In this document: positions 14,647 to 52,863 of the stretch, piece by piece
Layout of the letters: each line of letters begins with the position of its first letter
Numbering within the stretch: position 1 is the first letter of the stretch
NCBI RefSeq assembly: GCF_018350175.1
Contig: NC_058382.1
Location: 57,662,001-57,726,000, forward strand
Direction: 5' to 3'
Length of the DNA stretch: 64,000 nt
DNA from: Felis catus
Taxonomy: Eukaryota
The notes under the pieces: model-generated
What the model was told of the DNA's origin: nothing
Seen by the model: the letters and a program-made list of their open reading frames with translations, nothing else
The model's database searches: none
Made by a program: the position numbers and the translations under genes

Positions 14647-15292
14647 CTTTTTGTTTTTCTTTCTTTCTTTTTTTGAGAGGCAGAGAGAGCACAAGCAGGG
14701 GAGGGGCAGAGAGAGAGAGGGAGACACAGAATCCAAAGCAGGCTCGCGGCTCTGAGCTGTCAGCAAAAAGCCCGACACGGGGCTCGAACCCATGAGCTGT
14801 GAGATCATGACCTGAGCTGAAGTTGGACGCTTAACCAACCGAGCCACCTAAGCACCCCTAAAATTTTTTTAAAACATTTATTTATTTTTGAGAGAGAGAC
14901 AGAGCGTGAGTGGGGGAGGGGCAGAGAGAGAGAGGGAGACACAGAATCGGAAGCAGGTTCCAGGCTCCGAGCTGTCAGCACAGAGCCTGACGCGGAACTT
15001 GAACTCGGGAATGGCGAGATCATGACCTGAGCTGAAATCGGGCGCTTAACCGACTGCGCCACCCAGGCGCCCCTGTTTGTTTGTTTTTTAATGTTTGTTT
15101 ATTTTTGAGACAGAGAGAGACAGAGCATGAACGGGGGAGGGGCAGAGAGAGAGGGAGACACAGAATCGGAAGCAGGCTCCAGGCTCTGGGCCATCAGCCC
15201 AGAGCCCGACGCGGGGCTCGAACTCACGGACCGCGAGATCGTGACCTGAGCTGAAGTCGGACGCTTAACCGACTGCGCCACCCAGGCGCCCC
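14647..15292 (-). mobile_element. Three head-to-tail CAN-SINEs (about 14647-14858, 14864-15073, 15074-15292)
   Basis: Three consecutive tail-body-head units. Confidence 0.92.
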
Positions 15293-33551: not shown

Positions 33552-33777
33552 TGTTTTTTTTATTTTTATTTTTTAAGTTTATTTATTTTTGACAAAGACA
33601 GAGTGCAAGCATGTGCGGGGGAGGGGCAGAGAACGAGGGAGACACCGAACGGGAAGCAGGCTCCAGGCTCCGAGCTGTCAGCCCCAGAGCCCGACGCGGG
33701 GCTCGAACTCACGAACTGTGGGATCATGGCCCGGGCCGAAGTCGGAGGCTTAACCGGCTGAGCCACCCCGGCGCCCC
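33552..33777 (-). mobile_element. CAN-SINE
   Basis: Full reverse element. Confidence 0.92.
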
Positions 33778-37500: not shown

Positions 37501-40500
37501 GTAGGTCGTGACCCCCGGGAGCGCCTTTCTGCTCCCATCCGGGGTACGACATGCAGACCTGACGGGACAGAGGTCCAGCGGGGTCATTGCCACGAGCAGT
37601 GATGTGTGTCTTCCCAGGGGAATAGCTGATGCCACGGGGCTTACCGCGGGGGCATTGACTGTCATCCGGCGGGGCTGGGGATGACAGCCTCCTGAGCAGG
37701 TGGCCCCTGGGGAGGGAGATGCAGCCTCGGGGCGAGAGCAGGAAGCGGAGCACACACTTGTGTCTGGAGCTGTGAGGACCGTGTGGTCATGAGCCCGGGA
37801 GAGAGAAAGGCTGCGAACTGCGGTTTCTCCCGCTGGCCCGTCCCTCTTCTCTGTCTTTGGGGCTCCACACCCTTGTCTTTAGGGAAACCCCCCTGGGTGT
37901 CCCCGCTCGGAGTCCTGCACTCATGAGCCCCACACACCGGCTTTGAGAATAGCCCGCCCGCCGCATTCCAGCAGTGGGACCCTGGGCAGGCTGCCTCCCC
38001 TCCCTGACCCTCAGTCTCCCTGCCTGAAAGTGGGGGTCACGGAGGTACGAGAAAGCGGGCGGGGGCTGGCACTCGGGCCTGACCGGCCTTCCCCGTGTCC
38101 CTGGCAGGCAGGGCCTCTGGCCGCACTCCAGTGACCCCAGCAGGGGTGAGTCCCCCGTCGGATCCCGAGGGCTGATTTGGGGAGCGTGAGGGAGGGACGC
38201 TCTTGGCCTCTTGGCTCTCCCGCTGTTCTTTGCGGAAACCTGATCTCACCACAGGGCTGTTCTCAGAGCACTGTTCTCGGAGCCCCTCCGTGAGGGGCGC
38301 CAGGGGCCCAAGCCACAGCCGCCTGGGCTGGGGGGGCATCTGTGTTGTCACTGGCGGTGCGCGCTCTGGCATACCGCTGGCTTGCTTTGTGCCTCCGTTT
38401 CCCCAGCTGTAACAGCGACAGACTCCTTCTGTGGCGGTTTGCTGGGAGGAAGCAGAGAGAGGGACGGGAGCTCCTTCCCGCCAGCCGCCGGCACATGATG
38501 CTCGGTGAACGGGCCCTTTACCCCTCGGAGAAGTAGTGGGCAGGTGTGGTGGCACTCCCTCCCTTGCGTGGGGTCCGACCTTCTTCCTGGAGACACAGCT
38601 CTGGCGTCCCACCTCCTCCAGGGAGGCTTCCCTGATGACACAGGCAGTGCACCTGCTTCTGCAGTCTTACTGTACGGAGACCCCTCGTGAACCCTGGTCA
38701 CCTGTTGTTACAGCTGCCCGCTCACCCTGGGGCCTCCAGGGTCCTGTAGCAGATGTGTTCTGAATACATATGTCCCCGGTACCCCCAGAGGGTCATTTTC
38801 AAAGAGCAAACGCACACAAAGGCACCTTAGATGCTCAGTTACCCACCCAATGAAGCCTTTGTACTCGTTTCTTTATTTTTGGTGGAAGACGCCCAACTTC
38901 CCTTGGCAGGACTCCCCGTTTCCACAGCCAACCACGCAGAAAGTCTCCTCTAAAGCAGCTTATCTGCGTAAGCTACTTAATAAGCGTTTATTGAGGGTGC
39001 CTGGCAAGGCCTTGACCTATAATGGTAGATGGAGCGGGGATACAGATAGACTGTGAGAGAAGTTTCCGCCCCTCCAGCCTGAAACCGGGACCCTGTGTGG
39101 CGACCAAGGACATGGGCTTCACGGAAGGACAGTGTGACCCTCAGCTGTGTGAGCTTGGGCGGGTAGCTTAGCCTCTCTGAGCCTCGGTTTTCCTGTCTGT
39201 GAAATGGGGCTGATCATGCCTCCTGGGGAGACGGGACCGCACACCGAGGAAGGGCCGAGCCGGCGGGCGGTCACACGGTTTGTGTTCAGAAGACGTTAGC
39301 CGTGAGCTCTGTCCCTACCTACGGAGGAAGCCGCAGGAGGACGTAGGCCCAGCCGTGTGCCCTGAACCCCCAGGGCTGGACAGCGTGCACCGTAACCTTG
39401 TAGTGAACTTGGGCACGGAATTTCCCCAGTCCTGTGCTGCTGTACGCGGGGCACCTTAATTAGGATGTGCTCAAATACAGCCTGTCCTCTGGGTAAGCAC
39501 ACCTCTTTTCATGTGTGCGTCTGAGGGCGAGGACTGTCTGCCCATTTGCTTAAATAGTGAGGCCTCAAATGCTTCGAATGCTCTAGCAAACTATATTCGG
39601 CTGAATAAAGCCACGATTATGAGGTATAAAAATCCTACAGGCCAGTGGAAGAAACCCCGGCTCATTCCCGAGATAGCTCTGGCTTTCGGTTGAAGGGCCA
39701 ACCTGAATGGCGACATTGACAGGAACAGCGGCCAGACGCAGAGGCAAACCCGGGGTCTTTGTAAAAAGCCGTCACCGATAGCTTTTGGCTACAAGTGGCG
39801 AATGCCAGAATTCCCATCTTGAATGCCTCTGAACTCAGCCGGGACTTTCTTTCTTTCTTTTTTTTTTTTTGTTTTTTTTTTCCTCTTTTTCCCCCCAAGA
39901 ACTCAAAGACACACTTCTTTTTAAGACTTAGCTCATCCTTCATTCAGCAGATTTATTTGGGCAAAATTGTGCCGAGCCGGATGTCCGTTGGGGGGGGGGG
40001 GGGACAGAAACAGGCTGGCTCGCTCCTGGCCCCAGGGGGTTTCCAGGTGGTGGTGACATCGCACCTGTGAACAGAGCTCTGATTAGGATAGCACCCCGGC
40101 TCTGGACCTAAATCCGCACCCCCCCCCCTTAAATCCCACCCGCTCTCCTCGCCTGAGGGACCGGCCAGGGACACAGGTGCAGAGCGCCCCAGCCTTGAAA
40201 AGCAGGGGACACTTGGCCCCTCGTTTGTATGCTTGTTTTGCTTAGCTCCGAGACACTTGGTTCCCCCTTTGGAGAACAGAGGTCGCTGTTCCTCAGGAAC
40301 GAGGCGAGGGGGTTCGTGAGCGCTCGCCAGGACTTGGATTTCAATCTGGTGCCACAGAGAGGCCGGGGAGGCCCCGAATGTCATCGTCACTGGGCGGCGG
40401 GGGGCGGGGGGTGGCTCTAAGGCAGCAGTTTCCAGCTCTGGTCCACGGACGCCCCTGGGGGACGGGTGTGCACGCCGTGAAGGTGGGAGGGCTTCCCCGG

Positions 40501-41478
40501 CAAAGGCACGCACGCATCAGTCGGCCCTCGACAAGGCCTCAAGGAAATAAAACCGGCAACACTTTTCTGCGCCTCGGCTGGAGTTCACCCTTTGGGACCG
40601 TGGCACCGTGGCGGCCTGAGGGTGGTTCCGAGGAGTGGCTCGCAGTTGTCTTTCAGGATGCAAACTCGAAGGTGCACCTGATCCTTAGGAGAAATGGAAT
40701 TTGTGCGGCCACTGAGCGTGTTTGAAAACTCGGGGGTCGTGGTCGAGGTTGGAGAAGCGACGGCAGCGGGGTGACGTAACTCTGCGTTTAACCCGGAGAT
40801 GGGTTAACTCAACCCAGCTTCGGCTCTGAATGTGGAAAAGCTGGCCGTGAGCGCCGGGCAGGGAAGCTTCGGTGCCCGAAAGCCCGAAAGCCGCGGTTGA
40901 GCAGGGACTCACAGGCGCGCGGAAGGGAGCAGACCCTGCCGGTGGCCGGGCACAGCGCGGTCCCAGGACAGCGACGCGGGGCCCCGTGCGCCACGGTGGG
41001 CGCACAGACGAGGAAGGCCCCTCCCCCAGGGAGAGCCCCGGGGGCCAGAGGGAGCTCAGGGGAGACCGTGCCAGCTTGGGCTCGGACGGGGAGGCGGCCC
41101 CCCGAAGCCGCGCCCTCGGGCAGGTGGTGGCGAGCGGGAGGAGGTAGGACAAGGAGCCAGTGTGACCACCCGGGTGCGGGCACTGGGGTTCGCACCTCTG
41201 GTCGCGGCTGCCCCCGGGTCCAAAGCAAACACGACGAGCAGAGAGCCGGCCGCCTCGCCTGGGCGGGTGGGATGCCCCCTGGCCGGCTGGGTGCTGCCGT
41301 GGAACTTTCTCTCTGCTGCTGAAACGAGTCTTTGTGAAAGCGAACCGCAAGCAAGTTCGGTTTCCCGGTCGCCGTTTCCGTGCGCCCCCCCCGCCCCCCC
41401 CCGCCCCTGCCACCCCGCAAAGTGCATTTTTGTGGCATCCTTCGTGTTGTCTGTCTCGCCCCCGCCCCCGCCGTGAAG

Positions 41479-41622
41479 AAGAGACTTTCGTCTCCAAACC
41501 CGAAACGGACGAGATGAACGAGGTGGAGGTGGCTCCCGTCCCGGAAGAGAAGCACGTCTGGGTCCAGCCGAGGGTGACCAGACCCACGAAGCCCAAGAAA
41601 GCGGCCGCGGTGAACTACATGA
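41479..41622 (+). CDS. CRISPLD2: CRISPLD2 exon 7 (linker)
   Basis: cgtgaag|AAGAG...ATGA|gtgagt; [48 protein letters not shown]; 144 nt. The acceptor is a tandem AAG-AAG. Confidence 0.92.
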
Positions 41623-42386
41623 GTGAGTGGGGGCCGCCTCTGCGGGGGGGGGGCCAGGAGGGGCGCTGCGGGGTGGGGAGGGCTCCGAGCGGGCAGACAG
41701 TGGGGACACAGGGCGGGTCTGGGTACAAACGCGCCGCCCCGAGGTGTTTTCCAAAAAGGATACTTTTAAGTCATTTCCAAAGCAAGCGTTATGGGAGTGG
41801 TGCTTGGGGGGCCTTTCCCGCCAGGCAGGTATTTCGAGGTGAGGCCTTGCCCTTTCATCGGGGGGCCTGGGCTGAAACTGGGTCCCCCTGGAGGTGCCGG
41901 CAGGGCGGGCATCCGGGCCCGGCTCTGGTGCCTCGGACCCTCGCTGGCCCCTTCGAGACTTGGTTTGCTCATCCATAAAAGGGGACAGTAAGGCCCATGT
42001 GGCGTTGCTTTGAGCATCCTTTGCAGTAATGGGGGCCACCCAGTGTCAGCTCTGAGGTCATCACCGCAGTGCCACCCGCGCTCCCCCCCAAGGCTCCTGG
42101 AAGTCCCCAAATGCAGGGTATTGTCAGGCTTTCCCCTCTCCTGCCCCTCAATGCCCTCACCTGCCCTGGCTGGAGCTCAGTGCTCCGTTTCCCCAAGGTA
42201 GCGCCTTTCCTGAAGGTTCGGGGCTCTGGAGGGGTGTTTTCTCACGAGCACAACACAGGCCTGGGCCGTCCACTCATGGTTCTCTGCTTCCCCCTAAGCC
42301 GGTTCCATTAAGAAAATGATAATTTAACATTACAAAATAAATGTCTTTCTTTCTTTTAAATAAGAGAGACAAATCAACAAGCAAGA

Positions 42387-42607
42387 TTTTTTTAAATGTT
42401 TATCCGCTTTTGAGAGAGAGAGAGAGAGAGAGAGAGAGCGTGAGACCAGGAGAGGGGCAGAAAGAAAGGGAGAGACAGAATCCCAAGCAGGCTCCACGCT
42501 GCCAGCGCAGGGCCTGACGTGGGGCTCGAAACTCACAAACCGTGAGATCGTGACCTGAGCCGAAATCAAGAGTCAGATGCTTAACCGACTGAGCCACCCG
42601 GGCGCCC
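42387..42607 (-). mobile_element. CAN-SINE (older type) in intron 7
   Basis: Full reverse element with (GA)n. Confidence 0.92.
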
Positions 42608-42928
42608 AAATAATAAGTCTTTTTGACAAACTCTGACCCCACGCCAGGATTCTGACGTGTCCCTGTAAGACAGACAAGAAAGTAATGCTCGACAGCAGTG
42701 GTCTTGGCTGGAGAAGGCCTGTAAGTCCCACCCTCCGGAACCTTCTGGGGCTTCAGGGCACTTGGTGCGTATCAGGCCCCCCCTCCAAAGCCACATGCAC
42801 GTTCTCAGTTAACGCTGACAGAAACAGCACCCAAGGTCCTATCCCTACTCTCCGTATGCGGACACACCCTCACGGAGGGGAAGGAACATATCCAAGGTCA
42901 CACTGCTTCTCTAAAGGGGCAGGTCGTT

Positions 42929-43143
42929 GGGGCGCCTGGGTGGCGCAGTCGGTTAAGCGTCCGACTTCGGCCAGGTCACGATCTCGCGGTCGGTGAGTTC
43001 GAGCCCCGCATCGGGCTCTGGGCTGACGGCTCGGAGCCTGGAGCCTGTTTTCGATTCTGTGTCTCCCTCTCTCTCTGCCTCTCCCCCGTTCATGCTCTGT
43101 CTCTCTCTGTCCCAAAAATAAATAAACGTTGAAAAAAAAAAAT
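42929..43143 (+). mobile_element. Young feline CAN-SINE, forward, with perfect 15-bp TSD
   Basis: TSD TAAAGGGGCAGGTCG at 42912-42926 and 43144-43158; CpG-rich, intact body. Confidence 0.96.
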
Positions 43144-43329
43144 TAAAGGGGCAGGTCGGGGATTGGAACCTCACAGCTGAAGCATGCAGCCAGTGGGCAC
43201 TGCTCCTGCTCAGGTTGTGGCACGGATTCCGGAGTGTTCCAGAAAGTTCTTCGGAGTGGGGGGTGGTGTCTGTTAACTCAGACCGATCCCCCTGCTTCTG
43301 TGACGTGTATTTCCGCACTTCTCTCCTAG

Positions 43330-43390
43330 CCCAAGTTGTCAGCTGTGACACCAAGATGAAGGACAAGTGCAAAGGGTCCACGTGCAACAG
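43330..43390 (+). CDS. CRISPLD2: CRISPLD2 exon 8 (LCCL1)
   Basis: ctcctag|CC...CAG|gtaagg; QVVSCDTKMKDKCKGSTCN; 61 nt. Confidence 0.96.
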
Positions 43391-43656
43391 GTAAGGCCCG
43401 GCTGCACCCCTCTCTGGCCGACGCCTGCACCCCCTTCGAAGCGCGTGCCGCGGTCACGGGCCACGTCGTGATCAGTGCGTTGCCGGCCAGCCGGGCCGAG
43501 CTGGGTAGAGACTCGGGGGAAAATGCCCTCCTCTACTCTTAGCACAACGGTTGTGCCGGGTCGAGCGGGATGCTAGGCAGGCTCCTTCCCTGACATAGGC
43601 TAGACCGGCCGTGGCGTCTCAGAGCTCCCTCCGACTGCCACCGTTTAGTGCCTAGA

Positions 43657-43870
43657 CCCGAGCTTCTCGGCCTCGGCACTCCTGACGTTTAGGGCCAGAT
43701 CATTCTCTGGGGCGGGGCTGTTCTGTGCACTGGAGGGCGTCGAGCAGCATCCTGGCCTCACCCCCCTGGATGCCAGGAGCACCCCCACCCCCAACTGGGA
43801 TGCCTAAAAATGGCCCCAGAAACTGCCCCACCTTCCCTGAGGGCTAAAATCAGTCCCGGTTGATAGCCTT
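43657..43870. mobile_element. MER20 DNA transposon relic in intron 8
   Basis: CCTCGGCACTCCTGACGTTTAGGGCCAGATCATTCT...GGGCTGTTCTGTGCACTG...AGCAGCATCCTGGCCTC...GATGCCAGGAGCACCCC...AAAATCAGTCCCGGTTGA follows the MER20 consensus end to end. Confidence 0.85.
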
Positions 43871-45803
43871 TGACCAGGGAGCTGGCCCAGGCTCCCACCG
43901 GGTGTCCCCTCACCTGGACGAATATTCCAGTGAAGCGTTTCACGTCTCGTGGGGAGGACGGGCCCGAGTGACGGACGCTCTGGGTCCTTGGTCCAAAGAG
44001 AATCCCCAGGCAGATGCGCTGTAGACACGGAGCTCGTGCATGGCCGGGGCCCCGTTCCACCTGCTGCGCGAAGGGGGTCGCGGGGTGGCCCGGGTCCCGT
44101 GCAGAGCAGGGGAGGGCGGGGGCCGTGGGAGGACACGTGTGAGCCGGCGCTGTTGGCCGCGGGCAGATCCGGCTGCACGGCTGTGAAACCCGCGTCCCCA
44201 CTGGAGTCAGAGCCACCAGGATGTTGTTCCCCGGCAGTTGAATGAATCCGTCCGGCTGATGGGCTCGCTTCGTGTTGCCCACTCAGCCGCTGAGGAGCGA
44301 TTGCCAGGAAGGCCGGGCTTGGGTCTGGCGAGGCGGCCGCTGGGCCGCTCTTTCGGGCAGCAAGCGGCCACCACGTGCCGCGGGGTCACGCGCAACCCCA
44401 GGCTCGTGGCTGGCAGCCCGTGTCGGTGGTGGAGCCCGGCCGCCTCGTCCGCCTGTGGCTCCCGGCGACCGTTCCCCTGAACGCGAATCGTGCTGTTTAG
44501 TGCGCACACCAGAATGAGAAGGCAGCAGATCCTGCTTTGAACCCGGGCGACTCGGAATTCGGTGTGCCAGGGGGAGGCTTTGCTCGGACTCTGGCAGGAA
44601 CGTTATTAGCAAGTGGCCCCGGGGCATCCCAGGGCGAGGTGGCTCGAGGGCCAGCAGGTGCCGAAGACGTCAAAGCAGTCGGGTTGTCGACAGACGAGCA
44701 AATGCGGCAACCACGGGCGCCGGAATGACCCGGGCACGGCGCGAGGGCACATTTGCGTGGCCCTGGGGCCCAGTTGTCCCTCCGCGGTGACGTGCTTTTC
44801 TGTACCGCGAGCTCGTGAGGAGAACATCACGCCAGAGTCGTCAGTGGGAAAAAAATGACGAGGTTGGAGAACATCCGTCAGATAGCCTCGAGAACGTTCC
44901 GGAGCCGGGGGTCGATGGGACCCTCTGCAAGCAGGGAGAAGGCAGGGGTCCGGCCACACGAAGGCCACTAGAGGCCTCTGATCAGGAGCTACGACTCCCC
45001 CCACCTGCAAACACAGGAGTGTCCACGGTTCGCCTCCTGGAAGTCAGCCCATCCCCTGGCTCATCAGTTTTCTGTCCACGGTGCTTTTACAGTTATAGTA
45101 TTGACCGGGCCTCCCCCCCCTCCCCCGACTTTAAAAAGTATTCACGGGTATCGTCAGTAATTCAGGAAAACACCACCAGCACCAGAGTGTAGAGAAAAAA
45201 CTAAAGATGCCCCGCCCTTCCGCGATATCCGTAGAGATTTGATGTAGCTTCCCTTCCGGTCTTTTTTCTGGGCACCGGGGAGGCTCCCACAGCTAACGCC
45301 CCTCACGTGCTACTGTTTTCATTTAAGATTTTCCGAAGTCGCATGTTTTCCAAAACCCTCATTTCTCGCGGATGCATCATACCCTAACGTACGACCGCAC
45401 AAAAATGTGTTAGGCCGTCCCTCCGACGGTGCCGGCTTCTTCCGGGTCTTTCAACGATTCCAGACCTTTGGTGCAGTGCGTGGGCCTGACTTTCCGGCTT
45501 CTGGCCTGGGCTACGCGCTTACAAGGAAAACTTAAGAATTGAAGGATAGGCATTTTTAAGGCTTTCTGGAAAGGTGCCTTTTCCTGGGCAAGAGCACCAT
45601 CGTTGCATTTTATCCTATCTAAAAAGAAAAAAAAAAAAAACAAAACCCCTTGGAATCTGACACCTAGAAAGAGGCTTGTCCTTTCCATCTGCACCTTCTG
45701 TGATGACTGATGTTTGAGGATTTTTGTTCTGGTGCCTTTGAAACCACTTGGTTTTCTTCCGTGAATTGTCCATCGGTCGGTGTCTCTGCCTTTGACATGA
45801 ATC

Positions 45804-46020
45804 TTTTTATTATTTTTTTTAATGTTTATTTTTGAGAGAGAGAGAGACAGAGTGTGAGCGGGGCAGGGGCAGAGAGAGAGGGAGACACAGAATGGGAAGC
45901 AGGCTCCAGGCTCCGCGCCGTCGGCACAGAGCCCGACGCGGGGCTCGAACCCACGGACTGTGAGATCCCGACCTGAGCTGAAGTCGGACGCTTCATCGAC
46001 GGAGCCACCCAGGCGCCCCC
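45804..46020 (-). mobile_element. CAN-SINE in intron 8
   Basis: Full reverse element. Confidence 0.92.
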
Positions 46021-46258
46021 CTCCCTATAACATGAATGTTAAACACATGAAAACGAGGTCCAATTGAATCCACGATGGTGTTCCCGTGACTATGAACTTC
46101 ACCTGGGCCTGTCGTGACTCCCTTGAAAACTTTCGGAGCCTGCTTCTCCCTGGTGTCCGTAGTAGAAGTTCCAGAGGAGAAGGACCCCAATGAATTCCTG
46201 GTGGGATTTCATCCACACACGTTCACCTGTGGGAATCATTTGCTTTCTTCTCCATCAG

Positions 46259-46325
46259 GTACCAGTGCCCAGCGGGCTGCCTGAGCAGCAAGGCGCAGGT
46301 GTTCGGAACTCTCTTTTACGAAAGC
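46259..46325 (+). CDS. CRISPLD2: CRISPLD2 exon 9 (LCCL1)
   Basis: ccatcag|G...AGC|gtaagt; [22 protein letters not shown]; 67 nt. Confidence 0.96.
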
Positions 46326-46778
46326 GTAAGTGGCCCGTGTGGACTCCCAGCGCGTTTGGAACGGAGGTGGCTGGTTTGGGCCCAAGGAGGTTTTTTTCCT
46401 TCCACCCCCTCCGTCCCAGAGCTGATGTGCGCCTGTCTCTGGGCGCACAGACTAGTAAAGCCACTTTTGGGACCCGGGGCGGACCCTCGTGAAGGTCAGT
46501 CTCCATGTTAGGCCGAGCGTTAATATGCCTCGCTGCGTGGGGAGAAAGGGCCATTTGTCACCGTTCTTAGTTCGTAAAGCGCCTCGGATGGGTTTTCTCA
46601 GATAAGCAACCCCAGGAGCAAAGACATGTTCTGGGGAAAGGCGGGAGTTAGAAGCGGGGTGAGCGTTGGCCCGACGTTTTGGCTTTTTGTGGCTTGGGGA
46701 CAAAACCTCGGGCATCTCCAAAGCAGACTGGACAAAGGTGAATTCAGACGTACTTACCGTCTCCCTTCCCGCCCCCAG

Positions 46779-46909
46779 TCGTCCAGCATATGCCGGGCCG
46801 CCATTCACTACGGGATCCTGGACGCCAAAGGTGGCCTGGTGGACGTCACCAGGAACGGGAAGGTCCCCTTCTTCGTCAGGTCTGAGAGAAACGGCGTGGA
46901 GTCTTTGAG
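46779..46909 (+). CDS. CRISPLD2: CRISPLD2 exon 10 (LCCL1)
   Basis: cccccag|TCG...GAG|gtaact; [43 protein letters not shown]; 131 nt. Confidence 0.97.
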
Positions 46910-48148
46910 GTAACTGTCCCGTGCTCAGGATTCCTTAACACTTTTCTTTTTTTTTTTTTTTTTTCCTGGTTATGAAAGTATTGTCGAAATTTTGAAAAGT
47001 ACCGAACGATATCAAGACGCAGGGAAACAAACTGCCACGGTGAACTTGAACGCCGTAGCTCAGACATCACCCCGTAGGCGTTTCACCGCCTCTCACCCGC
47101 GTGGGTTTTTCTGGGCGTGCGTTTAAGTGTTTAATTCGGCCGAGTTTCAACTCCTGCTTTTTCCTCCCATCCTTGGGTTTGGAGGCTGATTCTTGACAGA
47201 CCTGGTGCCCCCGCCCCTGCTCTGTGACCTTGGGCGGGTGTCTTCATCCCTTCCGGGTGACGGCGTCTCGCTGGGGAAAGAGGGCCATGGTAGGACCCGG
47301 CTGGTCCACACGGGTGCAGGCAGCCAGTGTTTTAAACGATGCAGCTCTCCCACAGTCGCTGGGAAAGATCTGTCGCCCCTGGAAAGGCCCCTCGCGCCCG
47401 GGAGTCCCCTCCCCCCATCCAGGACACCTAGAGCCTGGCCTAGCAGGGACACCGAGGCCCCTGCCCCAGCTCCCTGCGTCCCTGGGCCACGGTGCCTCGC
47501 ATCAAGAGAGCCTCCCTGCGTCAGGGCCCGTCCCGCCTCTGCAGCCAGGGTCACGGCGGCCAAAGCGCCTGTGTGTGTTCCAGGGGGTTCCACGCAGAAC
47601 GTTTCAAAAACCGCATGAGTCATTCCCCCTTGAAAGGTCTGGTTCTACAAGAGGGCTCGCAAGATTCCCTCTTCGCCTTAGCTGGGGTCTCAGGGGCCAC
47701 GTCACCACGAGAGTGAGGATGTCTAAACAGAAGCAGAGAGTGCGTTCGCGGAGGCCCGGTGACCTAACGCCGGCCACCGCGCCAGGCTCAGCGGGGGCAC
47801 CGAGGGCGCCGTGGGCCGGCCGGGTCCGGGCCCCGCGTGGCCCGCACAGCTTGTCCCGGAGCCGCGTCGGGGCCCTCCCGGCGGCCAGCTTTGCGTCTGG
47901 AGGGCAGTTCTTTGCGTCCCAGGGAGTCTGCCAACCTCGACACAAAGCGAACGGAAGCTTTATTTTCTCCAACCTCTAATTGAAACATAGTTATTTCTTG
48001 CTGGCGGAGTGTTGGTCCCCAACGGGAGTAGGGGTGAGGCGTCTGCAAACGTCTGCCATCAGGACCCTGGAAAGACAGTGGTTGGAAGACAGTTTCTGCT
48101 TCGAGTGCATTTGCAAGGAAGCACAGCTCTTACCCAAAGGCAGATTCC

Positions 48149-48348
48149 TTTTTTTCCCATGTTTATTCATTTTTGAGGGAGAGCGTGAGCAGGGGAGGGG
48201 CAGAGAGAGAGAGTGGGGGACAGAGGATCCCACGCGGGCTTCCTGCTGACCGCAAGCGAGCCAGATGCAGGGGTTGAACCCACAGACCCCGAGATCATGA
48301 CCTGAACTGAAGTCGAGGCTCAGCCGGCCGAGCCACCCAGGGGCCCCA
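48149..48348 (-). mobile_element. CAN-SINE in intron 10
   Basis: TSD CA(G/C)ATTCCTTTT. Confidence 0.88.
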
Positions 48349-48646
48349 CACATTCCTTTTGATGCTTTGGTAGTGATCCCACCAATAACTGATTTCCCGT
48401 TAACCTTTTAAGTTTATGGTCTGCATCTTAAAGTCACTATTCTGAGCGGGACACCAGCCTGCCCGAGGGGCTCTTGGCACAAAGTAGGTTGACACCCCCC
48501 CCCCGAGAATGGTCTAAGGGCTTTCAAGCTGATGGGAAACGAGTAGGGAAACACAAAGTTGAGTCCGAAATAAAACAAACATGGGAGAAACCCTGCACTT
48601 TTAGAAACAATTCTGTCTGCATTGAGCCTCCTGTTTTCTTCTCCAG

Positions 48647-48690
48647 CAAGTACAAGCCTTCCAGCTCGTTCATGGTGTCCAAAGTAAAAG
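48647..48690 (+). CDS. CRISPLD2: CRISPLD2 exon 11 (end of LCCL1)
   Basis: ctccag|C...AAG|gtaagc; KYKPSSSFMVSKVK; 44 nt. Confidence 0.95.
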
Positions 48691-48705
48691 GTAAGCTGGC
48701 CGGTC

Positions 48706-48956
48706 TTTTTTATTTTATTTTACTTTTTTTTTTTTTTTTACTTTTTTTTTCAACGTTTATTTATTTTTTTTGGGACAGAGAGAGACAGAGCATGAACGGG
48801 GGAGGGGCAGAGAGAGAGGGAGACACAGAATCGGAAACAGGCTCCAGGCTCCGAGCCATCAGCCCAGAGCCCGACGCGGGGCTCGAACTCACGGACCGCG
48901 AGATCGTGACCTGGCTGAAGTCGGACGCTTAACTGACTGCGCCACCCAGGCGCCCC
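48706..48956 (-). mobile_element. Young feline CAN-SINE, reverse, starting 15 nt after the exon 11 donor
   Basis: Long T-rich tail, CpG-rich body, same diagnostic positions as the 42929 copy. Confidence 0.96.
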
Positions 48957-49904
48957 TCGTAAAGGGTTTTTAAAGAGGTTCCTGACAATGCTGATTCTTT
49001 AACTAGTTTCTAAACGTATCTGCACCTGGCATCGGCCCTAAATCGCTAAACGGGCGACACAGGCCCCGGGGGTTCCCAGCTGAATGTCCCAGAAGTCCTA
49101 ATGCCTGGGTCTGGAGCAGCCAATAGGTTGTAGACGGAGAGTCTGTTTCTGTTGGTTGGCGATGGTGGGTGGAGTATTGAGTAGGATTCTGCAGCCTTGT
49201 TCTGGGCTCCTCAGAAAACAGGTCTCGATAGATTAGTAATGTCTGCCCTGAACGACAGAGGGGAAACTTGAGGAAGCACGCGGCCCGTCCGTGCCCTCCC
49301 CGGCCTCGCTGTATAATCCTGTCTACGGTGCGTTCACTTGGCGGGGGAGGGCGTACCCCTGGGGGGCGTCCTGCGGACACAAGCGGAGCCTTGGGTTCTG
49401 GTCGTGCAGAAAGAGCGCTTGACTGGGACGGTCTCAGGGGAGCCGAGATGTAGGGGCGCCCCGCCCGGCACCTTCCTCGGGAAGCTGGCCCGACAACCCC
49501 TTCCTTTGGGAAAGCAGTTCTTGGCTTGTCACAGGCCCTGGATGCAAGAATATCTCATTAGATGTCTTTATAAGAACACATAGCGGCTTTTCTCCTTATT
49601 ACAAAATAATGCCTATTCATTGCAGATAATTTAAAAATACAAAGGTGCCTTAAAAAAAAAAAAAAAAGGATTTGACCAGACTCCGCCACTTACAGATAAC
49701 ATTGTGAACGTTTTGGTGGATACTTCTGAAGGTGTTTTCCCTCTGATTACGAGTATATGCCCTGGTAACACACTGATACACTTTCAAAACTTGAAACAGA
49801 ATTACATAAGTTTGGTAACCTGATTTTTCTCTTCAAATAATACTGTATCAGGAAGCTACTTCTGTGCCTTTAAGTGGTGTTCTAAACCCAATTAAAAAAA
49901 AATA

Positions 49905-50343
49905 TTTTAATTATTTTTTTAATGCTTTTATTTATTTTTGAGACAGAGAGAGACAGAGCATGAGCAGGGGAGGGGCAGAGAGAGAGGGAGACACAGAATC
50001 TGAAACAGGCTCCAGGCTCTGAGCTGTCAGCACAGAGCCCGACGCAGGGCTTGAACTCATGGACTGTGAGATCATGACCTGAGCCGAAGTCGGACGCTCA
50101 ACCGACCAAGCCACCCAGGCGCCCCAAGAAGCCACTTTTTTAAAGCTTATTTACTTATTTTGAGAGGGAGAGAGAGCACGAGTGGGGGAGAGGGGCAGAG
50201 AGAGGGAGACAGAGAATCCCAAGCAGGCTCCAGGCTATGAGTTGTCGGCACAGAGCCTGACGCGGGGCTCGAATTCACAGACTGTGAGATCATGACCTGA
50301 GCCGAAGTCGGACGCTTAACCGACTGAGCCACGCAGGCGGCCC
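49905..50343 (-). mobile_element. Two tandem CAN-SINEs (about 49905-50125, 50136-50343)
   Basis: Two tail-body-head units. Confidence 0.92.
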
Positions 50344-50466
50344 ATGAACCCAGTGTTAATGACCTCATCTGCCTGCCACGATACGGCGGCCCCTGGTGTA
50401 GTGAACCAGTCCCCTTTGTTGGATTGCTACATCGATCCCCGACCCACCCAAATGATAGGCGGGACC

Positions 50467-50696
50467 ACGGGTTGGCGATCTGCCACCCTCAGGGGCGAAT
50501 CCTGCCTGCCCTCTGTCTTTGTAAATAAAGTTTTATTGGCACACAGCCATGCCCATTCGTTTACACGTCCTCTGTCGCTGGTTTCTGCCCTAACAGCAGA
50601 GTTGAGTGGTTGCCACGTAGTCCGTAGGGCCCCCAAAGCCAGAAATATTTAAATATTTGCCCTCTGGCCCTTTCGGAAGAGTTAGCCGAGCCCCAG
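50467..50696. mobile_element. MER58A DNA transposon relic
   Basis: TTTGTAAATAAAGTTTTATTGGCACACAGCCATGCCCATTCGTTTAC...GCAGAGTTGAGTGGTTGC...CTGGCCCTTT; TIR-like ends GGGTTGGC / GCCGAGCCCC. Confidence 0.88.
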
Positions 50697-51220
50697 ACTA
50701 GCTGAAGACACGCGGAGACTACAGGTGGGCAGTATTAGAGCCCCTTTTTACCTCTGTTGTTCAAACCCACGTGACCTTGAAGATCGCTAGACTGGGAATC
50801 AGAAGCCTGGCCTCCCACCGTGTCCTGGGCAGACCCAGGGTTGTCTCTTGGCCTTTGGGCCTCTGTTTCCAACTCTATAATTGGAATAATACCTACCGTG
50901 AAGAGAAGGAAGGTGAACAGCTTCAAAATAGAAAAGCAAATGAAAGGTATCGTGGGTCCGACGGAGGAACGATCGAGGGTGGTGACACCTTTGTGCTGTA
51001 GCCACGCTCAGGCCACGGGGCTTCTCACCCCTTGAGGGGCCCGAGGTGAGGTGCCAGCATTGCTGGGGCCGGGCACCTGTGGGCTTCCCATCCCACCTCT
51101 GTCCGAAGGCCCAGTGAGCCTCTTGGACCCGGCTGTCCAGCAGCCCATTTCATAGGCGGGTAGCCCGAGACCCCGGCTTGCGAGCGACCTGACCGTTTCC
51201 CATCGCGTTCCTGTCCCCAG

Positions 51221-51293
51221 TGCAAGACTTGGACTGTTACACCACCGTTGCTCAGCTCTGCCCGTTCGAGAAGCCGGGGACCCACTGCCCAAG
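51221..51293 (+). CDS. CRISPLD2: CRISPLD2 exon 12 (LCCL2)
   Basis: tccccag|TG...AAG|gtgaga; [23 protein letters not shown]; 73 nt. Confidence 0.96.
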
Positions 51294-52863
51294 GTGAGAC
51301 TGCCTAGCGTCTGGTTTTGCCAACACAGGGGCCGAGAGAAGGCGGCGTCATGTTGCGTCGGGGGTCATCGCGTGGGGCTTCTTTCACTCTGCGTAATGCT
51401 TTCGAGACTCACCTGTGCTGCTGAGCACGTCGGTGGTTCCTTCTTCACGGTGGTTTCCATTCTGTGCCTGGACCACACTTAGGTTTTACGTGCGCTGCCT
51501 AAACCTTCTCCGGCTGATTTTTGGAGGGTGATGCTTCGTGACAAAACAATAGGTTCCCGGTGACACTTCCTTCTGAGGCGCCTGTTAGGTCCTCTCGGGA
51601 GCTGTGAACCCTTCTCCCTCCATGAGACGGACCTTAAAACTAACATGTGGAGACCCCCAAGGTGTGAGCAGGGAAGAGCCCCAGGAGGCTGCTGGTGAGG
51701 GGCACACCCTGGACGGGGACCCCCCCACTCCTCCCCTCTGCTGTTCACACTCCCCTCGGGGCCCTCTCACTGGCCCCCACTGGCCCTCCGCCGCGAAGCT
51801 GATCCCCTTTGAATGTTCCAAGGATCACATCCTTTTATTAACTATTCAATAGTAAACCCAAATATTAAAGAGAAGCACAAGGAAGTTATTTTGGAAAGAA
51901 CAAATGAACAAAAACAAGAGCTTGACACGGTACAAGTATAGAAAACAGAGGTTTCTGGCCTGCCGTTCTAGAGAAAGTCAGAAAGAGTTTTCGTTCCCAC
52001 ATTCTGTTTTCTTTCTTAAAATCTCACACGCATATTCTCTCGGTCCACTCCTGTCCCCTCCCTCCCGCAGGACTGTTTTAACTTCCCAGTCCCTTTGTCT
52101 GCCTTTCTTGCCTCCCAAGATCCTGCCTGCCTTGGGGCCAGATGGCTTGCGGACGCCATGTTGGTTTCCTGGTCCCTGGGTTGGGTTCCAGCAACATGGC
52201 AAACCGTTGTAGATAAAGGCAAAAAAAAAAAAAAAAAACCTTTTCTTAGGTGGGGCTCATGCTTTTCCCTGGTCTGAATCTCTCACACCAGCTGGGGCCC
52301 ACCCATTTCCAGTTTGAGGTGCTCTCCTAATCCTCTAGGCCCACAGCAGGGATGTGGTTGACTGACGCAGTGGTGATCTAACCTCTTCCGCCTCAGGTTA
52401 TCAGCGCCCCCTCTCTGTACTAGTCTGACTCATTGAGGTGAGGGCCCTCCGCCCTTTCCGCCCTCATGCAGGGAACCGGCCTTTAAAAAAGTCTTTTGAG
52501 TATAATCTCCGTGATGTACTCCCGGTATGAGTTGGCCAACCCCCGAGAGTGGGAGGTATGACCTCCGACAAGCCCATATTCCCATCTCTCACATATTTAT
52601 TTTCTTTCACCTCGTTTCTGCGTGCCTCTTTTGGTACGGACTTTTAAAATTCCGTGTGCACGATTTAAGAAGAGGGAAGATATCTTTACCACCGCTAGGG
52701 TGCGAGAGGTATATGTTTTTTTCCTCAGAGAGTACACGCTGTGGTAGTTTCCTTTCCCATCCAAGTCGTTAAACCTTGACGCTCCAAGAGGGAGGGCCAG
52801 CCGCTTCTCGGGACCTGTTTTCTGCTGGCCGTGACCATCGCACAAACGTGTCTTGTTTTCCAG

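Follow-up and report, generated by a model that had tools for sequence, protein, structure and literature searches.

Two inverted young CanSINEs around the first LCCL exon block of cat CRISPLD2: probably an incidental pair with at most by-product effects on splicing

The CRISPLD2 gene of the domestic cat (Felis catus) raises the question of whether two recent retrotransposon insertions can change how the exons of a single protein domain are spliced. We analyzed a stretch of 64,000 nucleotides (nt) from this genome (assembly GCF_018350175.1, contig NC_058382.1, positions 57,662,001 to 57,726,000 of the forward strand), which is called the window below. Within it, two closely similar short interspersed elements (SINEs) of the CanSINE type, SINE1 and SINE2, lie in opposite orientation in introns 7 and 11 of CRISPLD2 and bracket exons 8-11, which correspond to the first LCCL domain (LCCL1). 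A previous sequence-only reading had proposed that these two insertions may have created a felid-specific circular RNA (circRNA) with an endless reading frame that encodes tandem LCCL repeats. Our results favor a more modest answer: the SINE pair is probably incidental, with at most by-product circles or in-frame skipping of the exon block.

When the two elements were aligned, their 185-nt bodies differed by seven substitutions, and the A-run that follows GTCCC differed in length by 3 nt; the identity was 96%, in agreement with the manual alignment made earlier. SINE1 was found to end 187 nt before the exon 8 acceptor (43330), and only 15 nt separated the exon 11 donor (48690) from the T-tail of SINE2, which starts at 48706 and whose head ends at 48956; both distances had been given correctly in the sequence-only reading. 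The inverted-repeat arms (42929-43121 and 48764-48956) were 193 nt in length, 96% complementary and 5,642 nt apart, and they were the best arms found in the region 40000-52000. Additionally, both elements carried all three diagnostics of the feliform CanSINE subtype IIB (SINEC_Fc1), namely the GGCTCGG motif, the A-box T-to-G change and a 1-nt indel near position 51, when aligned against the available text of PMC4084570, where this subtype is dated to roughly the last 5 million years. Unlike a typical SINEC_Fc1 insertion, SINE2 showed no clear target-site duplication but only a 6-nt T-rich match. We also observed a TT/AAAA site, which we take to be an endonuclease-type motif, 15 nt ahead of the SINE2 head; a matching duplication was not found behind the tail (48691-48975). 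The SINE2 tail may owe its position so near the exon 11 donor (15 nt) to a deletion at the time of insertion or later.

Local duplication or gene conversion was considered as the source of the 96% identity and was ruled out by closer genomic copies and by comparison with a consensus. In particular, at least 39 other genomic copies were 97-98% identical to SINE1, closer than SINE2 is (40 of 3,003 candidates scored). Compared with the local consensus of 19 young copies, SINE1 differed at seven positions and SINE2 at two; a single difference was common to both elements, and it was also present in two unrelated copies. The identity between SINE1 and SINE2 is thus attributed to common subfamily ancestry and not to local copying, and, as judged from these alignments, each element was inserted independently and belongs to a large felid subfamily of young age.

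To place the pair against a chance background, we used 264 kilobases (kb) made up of two 100-kb blocks (A and B) from the same contig and the 64-kb window. Inverted SINE pairs with at least 94% identity within 6 kb accounted for 0 of 12 pairs in block A, 4 of 72 in block B and 1 of 7 in the window (SINE1-SINE2 itself), so that five were present in the 264 kb, along with 12 copies at least 92% identical to SINE1. If 600,000 short exon blocks are assumed and the density on this one contig is taken for the genome, with depletion near acceptors ignored, then about 39 inverted young pairs lying no more than 250 nt from both block ends would be expected genome-wide, 13 of them in phase, and about 2,500 pairs within 2 kb, all of which are rough, order-of-magnitude values. 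On this rough estimate, having both copies this near to splice sites is rarer than the pair itself, and the locus is among the tighter cases, yet within chance. In a dog study, the density of polymorphic SINEs did not decrease immediately downstream of exons, and inverted pairs showed depletion at spacers under approximately 100 base pairs (bp) only (10.1101/2020.10.27.358119); therefore, the 15-nt spacing from the donor is unremarkable by itself.

The layout as a whole is also familiar from other mammals. Mammalian circRNAs are usually flanked by young lineage-specific SINE dimers, with shared loci giving no indication that the dimers are under additional selection (PMC8516420); this fits a by-product reading of the cat pair. 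The CRISPLD2 locus is similar to the loci with young dimers described there (Alu, B1, ID and opossum SINE1) in that lineage-specific inverted copies capable of forming a long stem flank an exon block. It differs from the circRNAs of those five species in that the element is a carnivore CanSINE and that the CRISPLD2 circle is predicted from the layout.

The host gene was identified as CRISPLD2 by a protein search that matched 110 CRISPLD2 proteins, in which the exon 10 peptide was 100% identical to the lynx, jaguar and tiger sequences. The lynx and chimpanzee proteins served as guides for placing exons 2-14 (the terminal exon was not found); when joined, these exons gave 479 stop-free codons, with 474 residues identical to the lynx protein. 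The numbering presupposes a single non-coding first exon. Exons 8-11 had a total length of 61+67+131+44 = 303 nt, AG/GT at all exon ends and a phase run of 1-2-0-2-1, and were separated by introns of 2,868, 453 and 1,737 nt. The splice sites of the block were ordinary: pyrimidines filled 16 of 20 positions at the exon 8 acceptor, and the exon 11 donor agreed with the consensus at 7 of 9 positions. The Pfam LCCL profile was matched by exons 9, 10 and 14, although exon 9 alone was below the curated cut-off. The LCCL boundaries fall at introns 7 and 11, both of phase 1, as in a class 1-1 module, and the second LCCL (exons 12-14) showed phases 1-2-0-2 again, like exons 8-11. Among the 36 homologues with a match to the pattern, 35 had a block of the same length as the cat's. 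The phase symmetry of exons 8-11 is an old property of the LCCL module that predates the SINEs.

Class 1-1 symmetry is the rule among shuffled extracellular modules (PMC8001218), and the CRISPLD2 block resembles these modules in that it lies between phase-1 introns and occurs twice in tandem. Unlike the modules treated there, LCCL is without mention in the available portion of that paper, and the assignment of CRISPLD2 rests on the phases measured here. Upstream of the block, we observed that exon 7 (41479-41622) was missing or unaligned in several carnivore gene models, namely those of hyena, jaguar, meerkat and tiger (two models). Its donor was the weakest among exons 3-14 (5/9), and its acceptor was U-poor; possible explanations are a cassette exon and an artefact of annotation.

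The endless reading frame has to be seen against this module structure. In the predicted circle of exons 8-11, the back-splice junction codon was GCC, and one frame contained no stop codons and two Met codons; the other two frames contained four and two stops. The sequence thus has the form of a rolling-circle open reading frame (rcORF), being 303 nt (a multiple of three), stop-free and equipped with two in-frame AUGs, one with a purine at -3 and the other with a G at +4, neither having both. The junction codon, the stop-free frame and the two ATGs, like the exon total and the phase 1 of both outer introns, were as the sequence-only reading had stated. When we enumerated the 78 contiguous blocks of CRISPLD2 exons 3-14, however, 24 had lengths divisible by three, and all 24 were stop-free, 22 of them with a Met. 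The frame is stop-free because equal phases at start and end keep the frame of the host gene, which leaves the junction codon as the sole possible stop. The endless frame was consequently rejected as independent evidence, since it is common to 24 in-phase CRISPLD2 blocks. This part of the earlier interpretation was not supported; support was found for a young pair able to form a predicted stem of about 210 bp, for the back-splicing geometry and for an rcORF by definition.

The predicted rolling-circle product would contain six Cys per turn and would lack the exon 2 N-terminus, which is presumably the signal peptide of CRISPLD2. A functional tandem-LCCL product, as proposed earlier, is unlikely because it would be made without this N-terminus and with six Cys per turn in the cytosol. 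Precedent for translation does exist: rcORFs accounted for roughly half of the circRNA junction peptides in human mass spectrometry data, and translation of three rcORFs from reporters was observed (10.1101/473207). The CRISPLD2 circle is similar to the circPSAP, circPFAS and circABHD12 of that study in having a length that is a multiple of three, no stop, an in-frame AUG and the frame of its host gene, but for these three there are junction spectra and reporter data, whereas the CRISPLD2 circle is predicted from sequence. The human rcORF products were low in abundance, and two of the three tested were rapidly degraded by the proteasome (10.1101/473207). Additionally, CRISPLD2 was not found in the searched supplements of that study (PMC9242994). 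Taken with the 24 equally stop-free blocks, these points make a felid-specific circRNA translated by rolling circle into functional tandem LCCL repeats extremely improbable in our judgment.

We then compared the pairing capacity of SINE1 with each antisense copy. The predicted SINE1-SINE2 duplex comprised 209 pairs with an energy of -456 kcal/mol and was the most stable of the seven antisense partners computed; such a duplex could form in nascent RNA. The predicted stem ended at 43149 and started again at 48735, leaving approximately 181 nt up to the exon 8 acceptor on one side and 45 nt back to the exon 11 donor on the other, so that both splice sites were outside the stem. Reverse-complementary repeats are present in both flanking introns, together with a canonical upstream acceptor and downstream donor, as in the layout of repeat-driven circRNAs. 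The pairing of SINE1 with either of the two further antisense copies in intron 11 would also loop out exons 8-11, and an antisense copy at 33558 paired with SINE1 at -365 kcal/mol.

Driven by this geometry, cat cells that express CRISPLD2 might make a robust circRNA from exons 8-11 (or 7-11) that is not translated and stands well above background. The tight, high-identity predicted stem and the ordinary splice sites at both ends speak for such a circle, as does the listing of CRISPLD2 among circRNA host genes, in cattle (PMC12817609) and for a human array probe (PMC6954096, retracted), in both cases without exon coordinates. However, transcription reaches three antisense copies ahead of SINE2, and these can take SINE1 first (-307, -379 and -269 kcal/mol), and three internal introns also need removal. 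In the open-licence PMC and bioRxiv literature, moreover, we found no report of such a circle: "circCRISPLD2" was not found, no cat circRNA work was seen by title among the matches listed, and no report of young CanSINE pairs remodelling cat splicing was found. We regard a robust circle as unlikely, though it deserves some weight. The cattle and human-array listings also imply that CRISPLD2 circles need not depend on CanSINEs; the term "felid-specific" is supported for the type of SINE alone.

The sequence-only reading had restricted the outcome of the loop to a circle and had overlooked that the same loop could lead to in-frame skipping of LCCL1. If the main effect of the stem were loop-out skipping of exons 8-11, an in-frame 7-to-12 mRNA would encode a secreted CRISPLD2 without LCCL1. 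Joining phase 1 to phase 1 preserves the frame, with ATG as the 7-to-12 junction codon, and the skip product is more plausible than a cytosolic concatemer because both the frame and the N-terminus are kept. Loop-out exon skipping between inverted Alus is reportedly also the case in TBXT. Around exons that can be skipped, primates show an enrichment of inverted Alu pairs, and all 11 hominoid candidates were validated (PMC13019027). The CRISPLD2 locus is similar to these cases in having an inverted SINE pair near exons and a frame-preserving loop, but the precedent in the text available concerns single exons flanked by Alus, whereas in CRISPLD2 CanSINEs would have to cause four exons over 5.4 kb to be skipped together.

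The protein record, searched with single-exon queries, also bears on this point. Neither the 11-to-8 nor the 7-to-12 junction was found in any of 151 fetched proteins, which were mostly 90%-identity cluster representatives with no domestic-cat isoform among the matches listed. Among 38 proteins bearing exon 7, 16 continued into exon 8, 10 had another continuation and 12 could not be located; three of the 10 were visibly exon 8 variants, and seven read into the intron. All five felid proteins with a located exon 7 junction (four lynx and one puma) continued from exon 7 to exon 8, and those species may lack the insertions. Given the four-exon distance and this record, skipping as the main effect appears doubtful to us and carries only a small share of our confidence.

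SINE2 could also act alone, either through its antisense U-rich tail and a CAG that serve as a cryptic acceptor or through altered use of the exon 11 donor. A U-rich tract followed by CAG was indeed present (48755-48778, with the CAG at 48776-48778), 88 nt after the exon 11 donor, and antisense SINEC_Cf copies near exons disrupt splicing in several dog diseases (10.1101/2020.10.27.358119). The dog cases in the available text sit upstream of exons, though, and the undepleted density downstream suggests little effect; the resulting intron would also be very short. An action of SINE2 alone is accordingly very unlikely.

Several observations weigh against the view that the pair is incidental. Both repeats lie less than 200 nt from splice sites and share 96% identity, SINE2 is ahead of all six other partners by at least 63 kcal/mol, and intron 11 contains no competing sense copy; with geometry this favorable, a fairly abundant circle is possible. 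The background comes from a small sample, 264 kb of one contig, and part of it is rich in SINEs; the protein junction check is weak because of its single-exon queries and the composition of its hits described above. We nevertheless consider an incidental pair the probable explanation. In this explanation, two independent recent retrotranspositions of an active felid CanSINE subfamily would have placed copies, by chance and in opposite orientation, in introns 7 and 11, on either side of a first LCCL domain whose four exons already formed a phase 1-1 module. SINE1 would pair in nascent RNA with several antisense copies, best with SINE2, and thereby close a loop. From the precedent of Alu and other SINEs, we infer that exons 8-11 are probably back-spliced and/or skipped slightly more often because of the stem. 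Any circle would then be a low-level by-product of splicing, and a stable, functional tandem-LCCL protein would not be expected. The locus is at best a candidate for a SINE-dimer-assisted circRNA or for loop-out skipping, and would represent one instance of an established layout. The features discussed are summarized in Table 1.

Table 1. Positions in the window of CRISPLD2 exons 7-12 and of the CanSINEs that may take part in pairing.
Feature	Position	Strand	Description
CRISPLD2 exon 7	41479..41622	+	144 nt, phase 1-1; upstream partner of a possible in-frame 7-to-12 skip
Older antisense CanSINE, intron 7	42387..42607	-	74-78% identity to SINE1; -307 kcal/mol (predicted); competitor in the same intron, about 320 nt upstream
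SINE1 target-site duplication, 5' copy	42912..42926	+	15 nt, perfect; 3' copy at 43144-43158
SINE1, young felid CanSINE (features of subtype IIB / SINEC_Fc1)	42929..43143	+	Sense, intron 7; sole young sense copy in the window
CRISPLD2 exon 8	43330..43390	+	61 nt, phase 1 to 2; candidate back-splice acceptor at 43330
Older antisense CanSINE, intron 8	45805..46019	-	84-86% identity to SINE1; -379 kcal/mol (predicted); transcribed about 2.7 kb before SINE2
CRISPLD2 exon 9	46259..46325	+	67 nt, phase 2 to 0; LCCL profile positions 23-44
CRISPLD2 exon 10	46779..46909	+	131 nt, phase 0 to 2; LCCL profile positions 45-86
Older antisense CanSINE, intron 10	48149..48348	-	71-74% identity to SINE1; -269 kcal/mol (predicted); weak competitor
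CRISPLD2 exon 11	48647..48690	+	44 nt, phase 2 to 1; candidate back-splice donor at 48690
SINE2, young felid CanSINE of the SINE1 subfamily	48706..48956	-	Antisense, intron 11; no clear target-site duplication
Two more antisense CanSINEs, intron 11	49906..50344	-	87-89% and 82-84% identity to SINE1; -393 and -342 kcal/mol (predicted)
CRISPLD2 exon 12	51221..51293	+	Start of the second LCCL module

The CanSINEs of the window showed a marked strand bias. Among copies of at least 120 nt, 21 were on the minus strand and two on the plus strand (binomial p of approximately 7e-5), that is, mostly antisense to CRISPLD2, and the counts in the two background blocks were 15 plus and 9 minus, and 26 plus and 23 minus. 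This strong bias leaves SINE1 as the only young sense copy. An antisense bias of intronic SINEs is known in dog (10.1101/2020.10.27.358119). Head-to-tail runs of three CanSINEs of mixed age, all on the minus strand, were present at 14650-15292 and 789-1383, and the copy at 15080-15292 was young, with 93-95% identity to SINE1. Four young CanSINEs of alternating orientation lay in an 11-kb stretch at L019-L020 (G000:C39:57370416-57381400) and made up three inverted pairs with 96-98% identity, a denser arrangement than that of SINE1 and SINE2.

As it stands, the finding adds little beyond a single well-formed case of an arrangement already known from Alu, B1 and ID repeats. The strongest form of the idea would be a cat-lineage splicing switch over one domain, with secreted CRISPLD2 lacking LCCL1 on the one hand and an abundant 303-nt circle translated into LCCL concatemers on the other; we find this barely credible, and, if true, it would be a carnivore counterpart of the Alu pair of TBXT. 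The locus is also a clean test case: the pair sits very close to the splice sites, competitors of equal strength are few, and exactly one domain lies between the two copies. If either insertion proved to be polymorphic, then cats with and without it would provide a natural on/off experiment and its control. CRISPLD2 could show whether young CanSINE pairs remodel splicing in the cat as Alus do in primates.

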